Part shown: piece by piece, positions 2,999 through 26,440 of the stretch | Position numbering within the stretch: position 1 is the first letter of the stretch | Layout of the letters: each line of letters starts with the position of its first letter | Origin: an uncultured Candidatus Actinomarina sp. | GTDB taxonomy: Bacteria > Actinomycetota > Acidimicrobiia > Actinomarinales > Actinomarinaceae | Length of the DNA: 55,940 bases | Reading direction: 5' to 3' | NCBI GenBank assembly: GCA_902510995.1 | Contig: CABXDL010000006.1 | Coordinates: 1-55,940 of the forward strand | Notes under the pieces: generated by a model | What the model saw: the letters and a program-made list of their open reading frames with translations, nothing else | The model's database searches: none | What the model was told of the DNA's origin: nothing | Position numbers and translations under genes: made by a program

Positions 2999-4300
2999 AT
3001 GAAAGAAAATAATACTGACGAAGTTTTAATTTTGGGTTTACCTAATTCTGGTAAGTCAACATTAGTAAATGTGCTATGTTCAAAAAAAGTATCAATTATT
3101 GGTTCAACGCCTAATACAACTAGGGACAAGGTCTCTTCACTAGCAACTATTAATGACAGAACGTTTAAGGTTTCTGATTTACCTGGATATTTAGAGAATC
3201 CAGATGAATTAAATATAAAATTTCAAAAAAAATTAGAGGGGTACATAGATGATGCAAATATAATTTTATTTGTAATTGATGTTGATTCAAAAAACTTTAA
3301 AGGTCTAGATAAGTTAAATGACATATTGAGAAAAAGTAAAGGTAAGACAATTTTTACAGTATTTAATAAATGCGAAAACTTTGAAGTTCATGATCTAGAT
3401 AAAAACTTATATAAATATATATATGATCAGGATTTTTATATTTCATCTGTTCATAAAATAGGCACAGATGAGCTCAGTAACGCGTTATCTAATAAAATAA
3501 AAAGAACAAGTAATAATCAACCTATACAGAAATCAAATTCAATAGTATTAATTGGAAGACCTAACTCCGGAAAATCTACTTTATTTAATTCAATATTAAA
3601 AACAGATAGATCGGTAGTATCTTCTATTTCAGGAACAACAAGAGATGTTATAAAAGATACTTTCAAATTTGAAAATGATAAATATCAAATAATTGATACA
3701 GCTGGTGTACCAAGAAACAAACAAAAAAATCAGATTGATAGATACGCTTCTTCTCTTGCTGTTGATCAATTGAACCATTCGTTAGTAGCATTGTTGGTTA
3801 TTGATTCAACTATTGGAATAAGTTTTGAAGATTTGAGATTAATTAATGAATGTATTGAAAATGATGTTACTCCAATATTAATTTTAAATAAATGGGACCT
3901 ACTAGATACAGAACAAAAAGAAGGTATTAATAAACATATAAAAGATAACTTAAAAAAATTTGATTGGGTTCATGTATTAAGAATTTCCGCATTAACTACA
4001 AAAGGTATAAATCTAATTAATAATGTTTTGACAGATATAAATAAACAATTAAGAACCAGGGTCACAACTTCAGATTTAAATATTTACTTAAGAGAATTGT
4101 GGGTATCTAAGCCTCCACATCCATTTAGGGGCAAGCGTTCGAAATTAAAATATGCCACTCAATATGACTCATTACCTCCATCTATAGCAATTAATTTAAA
4201 TGGACGAATACCTAAAAATTATCAAAGTTTTTTAATAAACAAATTAAGAATAAATTATGGATTTTATAATATTTGTATAAAAATGAAATATAACTTATAA
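2999..4300 (+). CDS. der: Ribosome biogenesis GTPase Der
   Basis: Two tandem GTPase domains (GLPNSGKS..TTRD..NKCE; GRPNSGKS..TTRD..DTAG..NKWD) plus KH-like C-terminus. Confidence 0.95.
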   Translation: MKENNTDEVLILGLPNSGKSTLVNVLCSKKVSIIGSTPNTTRDKVSSLATINDRTFKVSDLPGYLENPDELNIKFQKKLEGYIDDANIILFVIDVDSKNFKGLDKLNDILRKSKGKTIFTVFNKCENFEVHDLDKNLYKYIYDQDFYISSVHKIGTDELSNALSNKIKRTSNNQPIQKSNSIVLIGRPNSGKSTLFNSILKTDRSVVSSISGTTRDVIKDTFKFENDKYQIIDTAGVPRNKQKNQIDRYASSLAVDQLNHSLVALLVIDSTIGISFEDLRLINECIENDVTPILILNKWDLLDTEQKEGINKHIKDNLKKFDWVHVLRISALTTKGINLINNVLTDINKQLRTRVTTSDLNIYLRELWVSKPPHPFRGKRSKLKYATQYDSLPPSIAINLNGRIPKNYQSFLINKLRINYGFYNICIKMKYNL

Positions 4301-18603: not shown

Positions 18604-19518
18604 GTGCAACCAATTGTTAAAAAATTTGATAATAATATATATCAAATTGATGTATTAATGGAAGGTAAAGAAGGCAGGCTAGCTTGCTATTACATTGATT
18701 CTAAAGATCCAATACTAATTGAGGTTGGACCATCAAAATCATTCCCGTATCTTGTATCTGCTTTAGAGAGTTTAGGTATACAAAATATAACAAGATCCGC
18801 AATAACACATCTTCATCTTGATCACGTAGGTGGTATTGGGCATGTTGTTAGTAAATATAAGAATCATTTTGTGCATGTACATGAATTAGGAGTAAAGCAC
18901 CTACCTAATCCAGAGAGATTATGGAACGCCGTTGCCGAAATTTATACTGATGAATGGCTTACTAATAATTGGGGAAAAATAAAACCTACACCTATAGAAA
19001 ATATTAAAACTTTAAATGATGGTCATGAATTTAACCTTGATAAAAATAGAAAATTAAAGTCTTTATATAGTCCAGGACATGCAAAACACCACTATACATT
19101 TTATGATTCTGAATCTGGGACTATATTTATGGGAGACACTCTAGGCTTAATTTATCCTCATGGTGATTTTATACAACCAAACTTGCCTCCTCCGGATTTT
19201 AATAAAGATATACTATTTCAATCTTTAGAGAAAATATATAGTTTAGATTTAAAACAAATAGCAATAGCTCATTTTGGGTTACATTTAAATCCTTATGAGT
19301 TAATTGATAACGCTTATAAAAGTATTAACGAATGGATAATGTTTATTAATAACTTACCAAACACGAGTAATGATGAAGCAGCTGAATTATTAAAAAATTG
19401 GGTAGTAAATAATTATGAGAGTTTGAATGTAGATAGTGAAACAATACAAAACTATATAAGCAATTCTCATTTCTTGATGCAAGTTGCTGGAATAAGAAAT
19501 TATTTAAGTAGCAACTAA
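18604..19518 (+). CDS. MBL-fold metallo-hydrolase
   Basis: THLHLDHVGG; PGHAKHH; GD; AHFG. Confidence 0.88.
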   Translation: MQPIVKKFDNNIYQIDVLMEGKEGRLACYYIDSKDPILIEVGPSKSFPYLVSALESLGIQNITRSAITHLHLDHVGGIGHVVSKYKNHFVHVHELGVKHLPNPERLWNAVAEIYTDEWLTNNWGKIKPTPIENIKTLNDGHEFNLDKNRKLKSLYSPGHAKHHYTFYDSESGTIFMGDTLGLIYPHGDFIQPNLPPPDFNKDILFQSLEKIYSLDLKQIAIAHFGLHLNPYELIDNAYKSINEWIMFINNLPNTSNDEAAELLKNWVVNNYESLNVDSETIQNYISNSHFLMQVAGIRNYLSSN

Positions 19519-19916
19519 GAGTATCTATACCAATCAGGTTTTAAATTTATCTTCTCCTCAATTCTTTTTCTAATAATCTTTAAATCTTTATTTTTAGGTT
19601 TCCAATCATTGTATAAATATTTAGGCCATTGAGATTTATTAAATTTTCTTTTCGGATCTGGATTCATCCCCCTTCTTTTCATCTCTTTTACTAACAGTGA
19701 ATATCTTTTATCTAGGTACATACCTTTATTATAAAAAAAAGTAACATGTCCTTTGTTTAACGTAAATACATCAGGTATATTATTTTTAGTTTTTAACCAA
19801 TTTTTTGATTTAATAGATCGTTGTAGAGAACTTCCAACCATAAATATCTCACGATATTCAGCTACTAGATGTTGATCACTTAATTCTTTCGGATTAACTA
19901 AGTTAATTCTTGTCAT
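19515..19916 (-). CDS. denV: Pyrimidine dimer DNA glycosylase / T4 endonuclease V family
   Basis: MTRINL....L.DQHL.AEYRE; F.L..GHV.FFY.K..YL..R; KP.WY, as in T4 endonuclease V. Confidence 0.93.
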   Translation of the reverse strand: MTRINLVNPKELSDQHLVAEYREIFMVGSSLQRSIKSKNWLKTKNNIPDVFTLNKGHVTFFYNKGMYLDKRYSLLVKEMKRRGMNPDPKRKFNKSQWPKYLYNDWKPKNKDLKIIRKRIEEKINLKPDWYRYS

Positions 19917-20315
19917 TTAATAATTATTAGAGTTTTCAATTTTCTTTTTAATGAAGTAAAAAACAGGAGCACCTAGAAATTCAGCAGGATAAGCCATTAT
20001 TACAAACAACGAAATATTAAGGCCATCAACTAATATTCCATATGTACGCATAACAGCAAAAAGTATAAATATAATTATTAACGTGTTTATATGTTCTAAA
20101 TTATTTGTACCTAAATATTTAAAACCTAAAATTATCGTAAATAAATAAACAATACTTGGATAAGTTATAAAATTTATAAAACCGTAACTTTCACCTGGAT
20201 AAATATCATAAAATTCAAAAGCTATTTCACTTAAAAAATTTACTAGGATCAATAGTCCAGTTAGTAAAATAATCATAAAAATAATAAGAAATCTTAACAC
20301 TTTTGAATAATCCAT
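19917..20315 (-). CDS. Hypothetical four-helix membrane protein
   Basis: Four hydrophobic segments; R.YG..VDG motif; TATAAT 6 nt upstream of ATG; abuts denV. Confidence 0.7.
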   Translation of the reverse strand: MDYSKVLRFLIIFMIILLTGLLILVNFLSEIAFEFYDIYPGESYGFINFITYPSIVYLFTIILGFKYLGTNNLEHINTLIIIFILFAVMRTYGILVDGLNISLFVIMAYPAEFLGAPVFYFIKKKIENSNNY

Positions 20316-20339
20316 TATTTCATTATATATAAAAAATAG

Positions 20340-20362
20340 AAAAACCCCTGATTTCTCAGGGG
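20340..20362 (-). terminator. Intrinsic terminator after the displaced 5S fragment
   Basis: CCCCTGA-tttc-TCAGGGG hairpin with A-tract on + (U-tract on -). Confidence 0.85.
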
Positions 20363-20370
20363 CTCTTCAA

Positions 20371-20441
20371 TAAAAGTCGGCGGTGTTCTACTCTCCCAGA
20401 GGGTTGCCCCTCAAGTACCATCGACGCTAGTGGACTTTACT
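20371..20441 (-). repeat. Duplicated 3' portion of 5S rRNA (att-like direct repeat)
   Basis: 71 bp identical to 21542-21612; identity stops abruptly after GGACTTTACT. Confidence 0.97.
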
Positions 20442-20567
20442 AACGAAATTGGTAGGTATACAGTACCCTCATGTGCATACAGCGAATATAGGTAATAGTT
20501 GTACGAGTTTTTTCTTTAGTTTTTAGTAATTACGTAATCTGTTCATACTCAATATAAGGAAATAACA

Positions 20568-20623
20568 AAAAAAATAGTCGCATAATAGTCGCACTATTTT
20601 TACTACAATTATTTTATGAAACT
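20568..20623 (+). repeat. Cassette repeat copy 1 (A7-TAGTCGCATAATAGTCGCACT-ATTTTTACTACAATTATTTT-ATGAAACT)
   Basis: Tandem 11-bp units; first 28 bp identical to 21417-21444; downstream part near-identical to copy 2. Confidence 0.95.
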
Positions 20624-20999
20624 TTTTCGTTTTATGTTATTGGCAATTATGTTAATGTCTTGTTCATCTTTTCAAGCAAATAATACAGAAGAAGTAATTT
20701 CAGAGGAAGTATGGCACTGGTGTGTTGGCAACCATAGATATATTTCCTACAACTATGACTACTTGTGGAAAGATGAAGATTTGAGAAATGAAGAAATTGA
20801 TTATACCGAGATACATAAACTTTTTAGCACTTTACTCGCTGCTTTTGATCTTTCTAAAACCCAGCAACTAATAGAAAATAATAACCTAAATTATTCAAAT
20901 CTTCTAGAATCTGAATTTTATACAGCACTTCAAGTCAAAGAAGAAGCACATTTAGAAATTTGTACAATATGGTTTAATATGAATAATCCAAATAAATAA
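20616..20999 (+). CDS. Orphan lipoprotein 1
   Basis: MKLFRFMLLAIMLMS-C lipobox; WC and CTIW Cys motifs. Confidence 0.8.
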   Translation: MKLFRFMLLAIMLMSCSSFQANNTEEVISEEVWHWCVGNHRYISYNYDYLWKDEDLRNEEIDYTEIHKLFSTLLAAFDLSKTQQLIENNNLNYSNLLESEFYTALQVKEEAHLEICTIWFNMNNPNK

Positions 21000-21046
21000 T
21001 CGCATAATACTCACACTATTTTTACTACAATTATTTTTATGAAACT
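20995..21046 (+). repeat. Cassette repeat copy 2 (degenerate)
   Basis: AATAATCGCATAATACTCACAC-TATTTTTACTACAATTATTTTT-ATGAAACT; 3 substitutions and 1 extra T versus copy 1; contains the stop codon of lipoprotein 1. Confidence 0.92.
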
Positions 21047-21410
21047 AAAATATGTTATCTTATTTGCAATTATATTAACTTCTTGTACAACCACTGATCT
21101 AGCAACAGATAATCAAATAGATTGGTGTATTTCTAGATCACGTAGTATTAATTTTGTAGCTAATTCTGTATCAGGAAAAAGTTCAGATACGAAGTCTGAA
21201 ACAATAAATTTAATTATATATTGGGAAACAGCCTTGAACCGAGTCGCAAAAAATATGGAAATTGATCCCGATGATGTATTAAATATTGATTATAATACAA
21301 TTGACCCAAATTCCTTATTTCAAGACTTTCAAAATTTGCTAGAAGAAGATGGTGAAGATTTTATGCGTGCTTCTAGAGTTTGTAAAATTTGGGAAGAACT
21401 TTCAAATTAA
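21039..21410 (+). CDS. Orphan lipoprotein 2 (distant paralog of lipoprotein 1)
   Basis: MKLKYVILFAIILTS-C lipobox; WC and CKIW Cys motifs. Confidence 0.8.
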   Translation: MKLKYVILFAIILTSCTTTDLATDNQIDWCISRSRSINFVANSVSGKSSDTKSETINLIIYWETALNRVAKNMEIDPDDVLNIDYNTIDPNSLFQDFQNLLEEDGEDFMRASRVCKIWEELSN

Positions 21411-21416
21411 TTTTCT

Positions 21417-21444
21417 AAAAAAATAGTCGCATAATAGTCGCACT
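21417..21444 (+). repeat. Cassette repeat copy 3
   Basis: AAAAAAATAGTCGCATAATAGTCGCACT identical to 20568-20595. Confidence 0.95.
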
Positions 21445-21513
21445 TTCTATTTTTCAATAATATCGTTGAAAATTATTAGATAATATTTTATTAAAAATTA
21501 CACTATAAAAATG

Positions 21514-21535
21514 AAAAACCCCTGATAAACAGGGG
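21514..21535 (-). terminator. rrn operon intrinsic terminator after the intact 5S
   Basis: CCCCTG-ataaa-CAGGGG with A-tract on +. Confidence 0.85.
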
Positions 21536-21545
21536 CTTTTCTAAA

Positions 21546-21663
21546 AGTCGGCGGTGTTCTACTCTCCCAGAGGGTTGCCCCTCAAGTACCATCGACGCTA
21601 GTGGACTTTACTTCCGTGTTCGGAATGGGAACGGGTGTATCCCCACTGCTATCACCACCGCAA
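21546..21663 (-). rRNA. rrf: 5S rRNA
   Basis: Reverse complement has CCCATTCCGAACACGGAAGT, CGATGGTACT and GGGAGAGTAG; ends approximate. Confidence 0.97.
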
Positions 21664-21713
21664 TTCTTTAAACTTTTTAAACATTCTATAGCAAGCGCGC
21701 TTACTCAGCATTC

Positions 21714-24773
<3,060 letters not shown>

Positions 24774-24902: not shown

Positions 24903-26440
<1,538 letters not shown>

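Follow-up and report, generated by a model that had tools for sequence, protein, structure and literature searches.

An integrase-less insertion in the single 5S rRNA gene of an uncultured Candidatus Actinomarina and an insertion hot spot downstream of 5S in the genus

Few bacteria in the sea are as abundant or as streamlined as Actinomarina. In the 55,940 nt stretch of an uncultured Candidatus Actinomarina genome analysed here (the window; contig CABXDL010000006.1 of assembly GCA_902510995.1), the only 5S rRNA gene of the genome is followed by a 1171 bp unit that is bounded by directly repeated copies of the 3′ part of 5S and contains two small lipoprotein-like genes. On balance, we judge that this segment is probably an integrative cassette that lacks an integrase, entered the 3′ two-thirds of the 5S gene by recombination of the tyrosine integrase (lambda) type and is serviced in trans. 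The assembly that contains it, here G000, is 0.98 Mb in 32 contigs, 75% complete and approximately 28% GC outside the rRNA genes. It is one of a comparison set of 64 species-level genomes of the genus, each of approximately 1 Mb, that are referred to by G-numbers; other contigs and stretches that were examined have L-numbers, and X2–X4 are metagenome runs.

A repeat search revealed that the 71 nt at 20371–20441 are 100% identical to, and in the same orientation (minus strand) as, the 71 nt at 21542–21612, as a reading made earlier from the sequence alone had stated. The repeat consists of positions 51–117 of 5S (the last 67 nt of the gene) and 4 nt downstream. That reading had also placed a sharp end to the identity inside the 5S gene, and this was seen at 20441/20442. 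The intact 5S gene (21546–21662, minus strand) is the attL side, with a resident 5′ part and its 3′ 67 nt within the proximal copy of the repeat (21542–21612); the crossover lies somewhere within this copy. The distal copy (20371–20441) is the attR side and includes the displaced 3′ fragment of 5S, at 20375–20441. Scored by itself, the distal copy reaches 21.3 bits against an Rfam 5S cut-off of 38 bits, and thus represents a gene fragment rather than another 5S gene. The intact gene, on the other hand, matches positions 1–120 of the Rfam model RF00001 with 99.4 bits, and the rebuilt gene is identical (117/117 nt) to the 5S genes of G018, G022 and G046.

A terminator scan found a different intrinsic terminator after each copy of the repeat. 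The one after the intact gene, at 21513–21541 on the minus strand, is borne by the insert and is unlike the native one in sequence; it also scores on the plus strand, at 21519–21535. The native 5S terminator (20339–20368, minus strand) now lies past the displaced fragment, and is nearly identical to the terminator found 3′ of the intact 5S gene in G018. A transposon or miniature inverted-repeat transposable element was rejected, because the repeat search reported no terminal inverted repeats at the ends of the insert and the flanking repeat is 71 bp of one specific gene.

An empty site was found in contig C3 of G018, in which a left flank that is 96% identical to that of G000 leads into a complete 5S gene, a terminator and then a homologue of the membrane protein gene found at 19917–20315 in G000. 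The G018 terminator and the sequence downstream of it match those 3′ of the fragment in G000, not those 3′ of the intact G000 gene. The order in G000 is hence the 5′ part of the host 5S, the shared 67 nt, a foreign terminator, the cargo, foreign sequence, the second copy of the shared 67 nt and the native terminator, and this is the order expected if a circle and the chromosome had undergone one crossover within the shared 67 nt.

To look at wild populations, contigs from four marine metagenome runs were mapped onto positions 19300–22100; these were assembled contigs and not raw reads. In two of the four runs, X3 and X4, which are from two studies, contigs run from 20370 straight on to 21542, so that exactly 1171 nt are absent, and the 71 letters of the repeat fit both sides of the join. 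The flanks in these empty-site contigs differ from the window at 10/792 and 3/469 positions. In run X2, a contig of 111 nt (record 10; 6 differences) spans the junction between fragment and insert at 20441/20442, and the occupied form therefore exists outside the G000 assembly. Cells in nature thus differ in whether they have the insert, as shown by the metagenome contigs with the empty join. The interior of the insert was almost without cover in the four runs, a search for sequencing runs gave word shares of only 0.26–0.38, and no conclusion on abundance or habitat is drawn from either; the contigs show neither which allele is commoner nor a circle. The empty-site alleles that the sequence-only reading had proposed to look for among relatives are thus present, both in G018 and in X3 and X4, and its caveat that the duplication might be an artefact of assembly is contradicted by the independent X2 contig.

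The 1171 bp unit contains only two ORFs between the repeat copies, both on the plus strand and both with lipobox-like N-termini. These orphan, lipoprotein-like cargo genes are here named lpp1 (20616–20999), encoding the 127 aa Lpp1, and lpp2 (21039–21410), encoding the 123 aa Lpp2. The ORF list, the repeat search and the family searches all agree with the earlier description of the unit as two orphan lipoprotein genes and repeats. Lpp1 and Lpp2 are paralogues with 24% identity from end to end, and a three-sequence alignment has three invariant cysteines. Neither belongs to a Pfam or PHROG family, and the 63 other genomes of the genus yielded no credible homologue; the best of the weak matches there (E values of 1.7e-4 for Lpp1 and 0.003 for Lpp2; 27–32% identity) fall within open frames of 462 and 572 aa. 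When 5.8 billion proteins were queried in a word-index search, one homologue of Lpp1, 42% identical, was returned. An AlphaFold2 model of Lpp1 built from the three-sequence alignment is all helical with a mean pLDDT of 62.8, too weak for a fold search. By analogy with cargo found near phage attachment sites, our guess is that the lipoproteins might have surface or exclusion functions.

A region of approximately 72 nt (repeat family D1) is present in three copies, upstream of lpp1, upstream of lpp2 and once after lpp2, and has at its core a pair of 8 nt direct repeats 11 nt apart. All three copies are on the plus strand. Motif copy 1 (20575–20598), found in the repeat search, is a candidate P-arm site and possibly an lpp1 promoter element. 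The middle copy (20997–21022) is degenerate and is in a promoter-like region upstream of lpp2, and copy 3 (21424–21446), approximately 100 nt from the end of 5S, includes an exact 19-mer and is a candidate P′-arm site. The exact 19 nt motif is found in the whole G000 assembly only at 20575–20593 and 21424–21442, and none of the 63 other genus genomes contains it with two or fewer mismatches. Read along the RNA strand, the motif pairs occupy positions 102–125 and 951–975 of the 1171 nt cassette, i.e. approximately 100 nt downstream of the end of the intact 5S gene and approximately 130 nt upstream of the fragment, and they are candidate integrase arm sites. The conserved non-coding arm region at 20442–20572 (plus strand) matched no Rfam family and showed no covariation when considered as an RNA gene.

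The arm region has relatives in two contigs from marine metagenomes, L112 (1255 bp) and L117 (1482 bp), to which it is 82–83% identical over 151–166 nt. These were the only two of 18 metagenome matches to the 19-mer that are homologous beyond the motif; matches in genome contigs, from an Ignavibacteria metagenome-assembled genome (MAG) and a Mycobacterium contig, were set aside as unrelated. L112 and L117 each have two copies of the motif 245 bp apart, and the region between the copies is 82–83% identical to 20431–20596. The flank of their first motif copy is 91% identical over 44 nt to the flank of the third copy in G000. Thus, arm sides that are 850 bp apart in G000 adjoin in L112 and L117, as is expected of an unintegrated junction. 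In the place that lpp1 takes in G000, and in the same orientation, both contigs have the start of a divergent 5S gene. This gene is full-length in L117 (534–650, minus strand; Rfam 77.5 bits) and approximately 70% identical to the Actinomarina 5S, while L112 includes only its first 55 nt or so (1–55). It may be borne by a mobile element or may belong to the chromosome of another organism. Two ORFs beside the L117 5S gene share approximately 74% nucleotide identity with genes in contig C30 of G019, and the resemblance of these two genes to C30 is the whole basis for regarding L112 and L117 as phage-like. Neither contig matched an entry of the phage record collection, the viral contigs lack their 5S gene, none of their ORFs has a PHROG family, a 182 aa ORF was found in none of the 64 genus genomes and no integrase is visible on either.

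Contig C30 of G019 (stretches L137–L139) is 58,316 bp long with a terminal overlap of 14,457 bp, giving a circle of 43,859 bp with 34% GC, and sits in an Actinomarina bin rated 5% contaminated. Its phage-family matches include a single-strand annealing protein, phrog_1501 and phrog_7084, and it has no tyrosine integrase. Among the unrelated occurrences of the 19-mer, three exact copies 93 bp apart were seen at 3580–4010 of L123, from the Ignavibacteria MAG, and an array of the 19-mer and close variants at 220–625 of L115, an unrelated metagenome contig. This distribution points to a DNA-binding or promoter motif that is widespread.

The 5S gene was located in 55 of the 64 genus genomes, and the sequence on its downstream side was retrieved from these. 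In 49 of the 55, a gene for a metallo-beta-lactamase (MBL)-fold protein is beside this slot and forms a conserved boundary to it; in G000 this gene is at 18604–19518 on the plus strand (Lactamase_B, 5e-19). The gap between the MBL and 5S genes is 36–48 bp in 10 of the 49 genomes, which have only the terminator (here called the ground state), 439–600 bp in 22, mostly with one small membrane protein gene, 844–1022 bp in 11 and 1274–3425 bp in the remaining six. The MBL-to-5S gap is an insertion hot spot throughout the genus. Cargo at this locus varies between relatives, as the sequence-only reading had asked of it. The G000 slot also includes older content on the minus strand (19515–20315), namely the membrane protein gene at 19917–20315, paralogues of which are in many genus genomes, and a gene for a phage-type pyrimidine-dimer glycosylase at 19515–19916 (Pyr_excise, 1e-16; phrog_1183, 1.6e-44). 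Among the genomes examined, the glycosylase gene was found only in G000, G018 and G061, and no flanking repeat was detected.

Additional 5S tails, each with a terminator and numbering one to five per genome, were found in eight of the 55 genomes (G000, G022, G017, G050, G054, G016, G058 and G012). The 5S fragments are mostly 16–25 nt plus the terminator, and are longer in G000 (67 nt) and G017 (73 nt). The outermost copy lies directly against the MBL gene in G022, G050 and G012, exactly as the terminator of the real 5S does in the ground state. The longest array seen is in G016, where at least five repeats of 5S tail plus terminator are spread over two contigs, C10 (L076) and C7 (L052), with cargo that includes a 511 aa P-loop protein and a T5orf172 protein. 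Most cassettes bounded by the repeats contain a single gene and some are just 234–334 nt. The 801 nt cassette of G012 has an 11 nt repeat pair at positions 61–85 and another at 729–753, and the 2096 nt cassette of G054 has repeat pairs at both ends.

Proteins encoded in the slot include a 598 aa AIPR protein (3e-34) in G054 (L049:10152–11948), T5orf172/MUG113 proteins in two genomes, a weak HIRAN match and another lipoprotein-like protein. In G068, a 1101 aa NB-ARC/TPR NTPase (L061:714–4019) is encoded in a 3.4 kb slot insert that has no repeats. Because AIPR and NB-ARC genes occupy it in two other species, the slot appears, as far as these family assignments go, to act as a small hot spot for defence genes.

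When IMG/VR was scanned for the 5S tail, three contigs were returned that contain only the last 22 nt or so of 5S and no whole gene. Two pairs of 11 nt direct repeats enclose this core in L101, where an ORF for a 397 aa integrase (Phage_integrase PF00589, 1.9e-16) is approximately 1 kb away. Besides a SAM-like domain at its N terminus, the integrase has a sub-threshold match to an arm-binding domain. On the other side of the core are tail genes. Using the L101 integrase as a query, we found seven stretches from seven IMG/VR contigs, three 100% identical and four 78–87% identical, and in all seven the order is integrase, repeat pair, 5S-tail core, repeat pair. Two of the viral records are 93–95% complete according to CheckV, at approximately 31 kb. 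The viral sequences are approximately 40% GC and the hosts approximately 30%, a difference for which we have no explanation.

In the cassettes G054c and G016c7 and in G012, the 170 nt upstream of the 5S-tail fragment are homologous to the P arms of these viral sequences, with the core excluded. The G054c segment is 72% identical to the L149 arm over 159 nt (E value 8e-18) and the G016c7 segment is 78% identical over 93 nt (1.5e-14), and the L151 arm has the same repeat sequence as the two ends of the G012 cassette. From the arm homology, it follows that these sister cassettes descend from, or are serviced by, phages that attach at the 5S tail. The sequence-only reading had proposed that the 5S fragment would be found next to an integrase on phage contigs. 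This holds for the 5S tail in the seven viral stretches and does not hold for the long fragment of the G000 island, which had no match in a scan of viral contigs.

Searches for further integrases and phages at 5S were negative in the collections covered. PF00589 matches are present in 61 of the 64 genus genomes, mostly just two proteins of approximately 290–300 aa, and are missing from G000, G063 and G076. The extra integrases found in the genus adjoin tRNA-Val and tRNA-Leu/Ile genes and not the 5S slot. A class-level search of 401 genomes with the viral integrase returned only homologues that are 26–30% identical, and of 15 class-level integrase loci inspected, four are beside tRNA genes and none is beside 5S. 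No intact prophage was found at a 5S gene, and no homologue of the cargo genes was found in the viral stretches examined or in five viral records. A different arrangement was seen in L142 (G045:C1:220000–238000), where two tRNA-Ile(GAT) genes 5 kb apart enclose a tRNA-Leu gene and a 339 aa integrase-like frame; this has the appearance of an element inserted at a tRNA gene, with the tRNA duplicated at full length.

In the explanation that we prefer for the G000 segment, a circle would have carried an attP comprising a 67 nt copy of the 3′ part of 5S and its own terminator, with the core flanked on each side by a pair of 8 nt direct repeats one helical turn apart that are candidate arm sites. 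Recombination in the shared 5S sequence would have restored the 5S gene perfectly and given it a new terminator, and the old 3′ end of 5S, together with its native terminator, would have moved 1171 bp downstream. The cargo would be two paralogous genes for putatively secreted, lipoprotein-like proteins, each behind a motif-containing upstream region. As both ends retain a core and an arm, the cassette should still be excisable, and could be transferred, given a cognate integrase in trans, for example from an infecting phage; mobilisation in trans and continued mobility are among the inferred parts of this explanation. A lambda-type integrase is favoured by the topology, the empty site, the unique motifs at the ends, the sister cassettes and the viral attP sites taken together. 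The proposal of the sequence-only reading that 5S serves as an attB and that the island is a non-autonomous or remnant cargo element, drawn from the intact gene and its displaced 3′ fragment, gains support from the empty site, the varied cargo and the viral integrases.

Several observations weigh against this explanation. The long 5S fragment of the island and the 19-mer each gave no match in the scans of viral contigs, and an invariant 18-mer from the arm gave four chance matches alone. The G000 arm is not homologous to the viral arms that are linked to an integrase, and an integrase adjoining an arm of the G000 type was found nowhere that was searched; as the G000 arm is unlike the viral ones, the link between the island and an integrase is one of architecture and not of sequence. 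No tyrosine recombinase (PF00589) was found in G000, which is 75% complete, and most genomes of the genus have only two, which are Xer-like. The att-like junction of L112 and L117 includes a 5S piece of approximately 26 nt and lacks the last 40 nt or so of the gene. The motif may be a promoter or operator rather than an arm site, because both lipoprotein genes have it upstream at a constant distance and it also precedes the 5S gene in L112 and L117; moreover, tandem arrays of this 19-mer exist in bacteria that are unrelated (L115 and L123). No circle junction was observed in the assembled contigs, which cannot show a circle. Finally, perfect identity over 71 bp would also permit insertion or deletion by RecA-dependent recombination, and the empty-site contigs fit both routes.

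A broader possibility, which we put forward tentatively, is that the region downstream of 5S is an integron-like capture array without a resident integrase, filled by circles that have a 5S tail and mostly one gene, and that are inserted by phage integrases acting in trans. New cassettes would push older ones outward, and the array would stock defence and surface genes in a genome otherwise without mobile-element machinery. In a bolder extension, elements with the G000 arm type, represented by L112 and L117, may carry a complete 5S gene of their own beside the att region.

The strongest competitor to a cassette mobilised in trans, though we give it clearly less weight, is the dead remnant of a prophage. 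Here, a temperate phage integrated in 5S would have suffered an internal deletion that left the att ends and two cargo genes in an immobile state. Phages with a 5S-tail attP exist, and the architecture cannot separate this scenario from a trans-mobilised cassette, because any internal deletion in a prophage keeps both arms. The identity of the 71 bp copies can be read in favour of the scenario, as it points to a recent event, and yet no phage gene is left. However, at least eight genomes have slot cassettes that are free of phage gene remnants, down to 234–334 nt, and a series of clean deletions is less likely than the arrival of small units as such. The lack of a cargo homologue in the viral sequences also speaks against a prophage origin. 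The empty allele, with flank identity of approximately 99%, fits gain or precise loss alike. Though the two are hard to separate, the retention of both ends and the many clean one-gene cassettes in the genus lead us to prefer the trans-serviced cassette over the decayed prophage.

It is less likely that no integrase was involved at all and that RecA-dependent recombination brought in circular or linear DNA that included the 3′ part of 5S and a terminator. Cassettes would then be shuffled, lost and passed between strains via the 60–80 nt repeats of 5S tail plus terminator and via the 23S/5S and MBL flanks. In addition to the perfect 71 bp repeat, this route could account for repeat units elsewhere in the genus that include a whole host-like terminator and for the many cassettes in other genomes that have no arm repeats. 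There is also a precedent: in passages of PMC7771536, Actinomarinales islands are described as being replaced through double crossovers and as gaining cassettes at tRNA repeats, and that paper does not use the word integrase. However, RecA does not explain how a foreign module first gained a 5S fragment that ends sharply within the gene, why a unique motif is present at both ends, or why sister cassettes are homologous to viral attP arms that are beside an integrase. We therefore infer that an integrase, and not RecA, made the G000 insertion, while RecA very likely contributes to the later loss and shuffling of cassettes.

An element of the IMEX type, inserted by the host XerC/XerD at a dif-like site near 5S, is improbable. 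The PF00589 proteins, mostly two per genome, are the sole tyrosine recombinases of most genus genomes, one is approximately 21 kb from 5S in several of the genomes listed (G059, G057, G011, G062 and G009), and cassette arrays form without an integrase. GC skew and passages of PMC7771536 and 10.64898/2026.04.03.716425 place the rRNA operon near the replication terminus. On the other side, the maximum of the cumulative GC skew is at approximately 13–14 kb in the window, some 7 kb from the island, no dif-like sequence was seen by eye in the repeat, and a degenerate dif-like pattern was not above control in five genomes, a weak test. Sister cassettes are, furthermore, linked to dedicated integrases. 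The window is 26% GC (0.26) between 10000 and 16000, and the skew peak near 13–14 kb is the likely terminus, with the rRNA operon approximately 7 kb beyond it. An artefact of assembly or amplification that duplicated part of 5S, conceivable in an assembly as fragmented and incomplete as G000, can be dismissed given the X2 contig across the junction, the two different terminators in an ordered topology and the seven other genomes with like structures.

The 5S gene is the last gene of an rRNA operon that Rfam places on the minus strand in the order 16S (24913–26439), 23S (21713–24772) and 5S. The spacer of approximately 140 nt that separates 23S from 16S, and the distance of approximately 50 nt from 23S to 5S, taken from the Rfam coordinates, fit the 135–153 nt and 46–49 nt given for Actinomarina in a passage of 10.64898/2026.04.03.716425; elsewhere, the same source, in the part considered here, sets the rRNA operon apart from the hypervariable region. 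There is no tRNA gene in the window.

The mechanism proposed is familiar from elements that target tRNA and tmRNA genes; what is new is the single-copy rRNA target, the minimal, integrase-less form and the hot spot that forms arrays. Like tyrosine integrase islands at the 3′ ends of tRNA and tmRNA genes, the G000 island consists of an intact target with a displaced 3′ fragment, has an empty site in relatives, supplies the replacement 3′ part and has arm-like repeats on both sides of the core. Unlike them, it is only 1.2 kb, lacks an integrase and has as its target the sole 5S rRNA gene of the cell. A search of full-text literature, which does not cover supplements, returned nothing relevant on a 5S gene as an attachment site.

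Cis-mobilisable elements (CIMEs) of streptococci are derived from conjugative or mobilisable elements at tRNA or protein-coding genes. The G000 island resembles them in having flanking att sites that look functional and no genes for recombination or transfer, and in the possibility of tandem stacking at the same site, and differs from them in its phage-like relatives and in the single-gene cassettes found in the genus. Closer to the present host, PMC7771536 (2020) describes island cassettes of Actinomarinales that are bounded by tRNA-fragment repeats, and screened for more tRNA repeats. The passages of that paper considered here do not mention the 5S gene, and its supplementary island maps may bear on whether the slot was noticed earlier. 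Tycheposons of Prochlorococcus, as described in passages of 10.1101/2020.12.28.424599, have their own integrase and replication genes and use tRNA genes as targets. In both of these systems, to judge from the same passages, the hosts are streamlined marine bacteria and successive insertions leave partial-gene repeats between cargo, as they do here. The target at the present locus is instead 5S, and the G000 insert, unlike a tycheposon, has no integrase or replication genes of its own. The slot is also like an integron array, in that mostly single-gene cassettes, each ending in a hairpin-containing repeat, are stacked at one site. However, there is no resident integrase of the IntI type, the repeat is a piece of 5S plus a terminator and not an attC, and the 5S-slot cassettes carry their own promoter-like sequence. 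An integron cassette, which is recognised by an attC and a resident IntI with attI, was rejected because these were not found.

The array-forming hot spot lies in a lineage thought to lack such machinery. The 5S slot bears on the question of how Actinomarina gain genes although they have no plasmids, transposons or resident integrases. If the explanation preferred here is correct, an rRNA gene would join the tRNA and tmRNA genes as an attachment site for phages and islands, and, because the 5S gene is single-copy in the cell, each insertion must rebuild it exactly. The MBL-to-5S locus would then be an easily scored marker of gene gain and loss in wild populations, and a match between attP and attB via the 5S tail could assign uncultured phages to uncultured hosts. 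With AIPR, NB-ARC NTPase and T5orf172 genes among its cargo, the slot would also be a miniature hot spot for defence genes.

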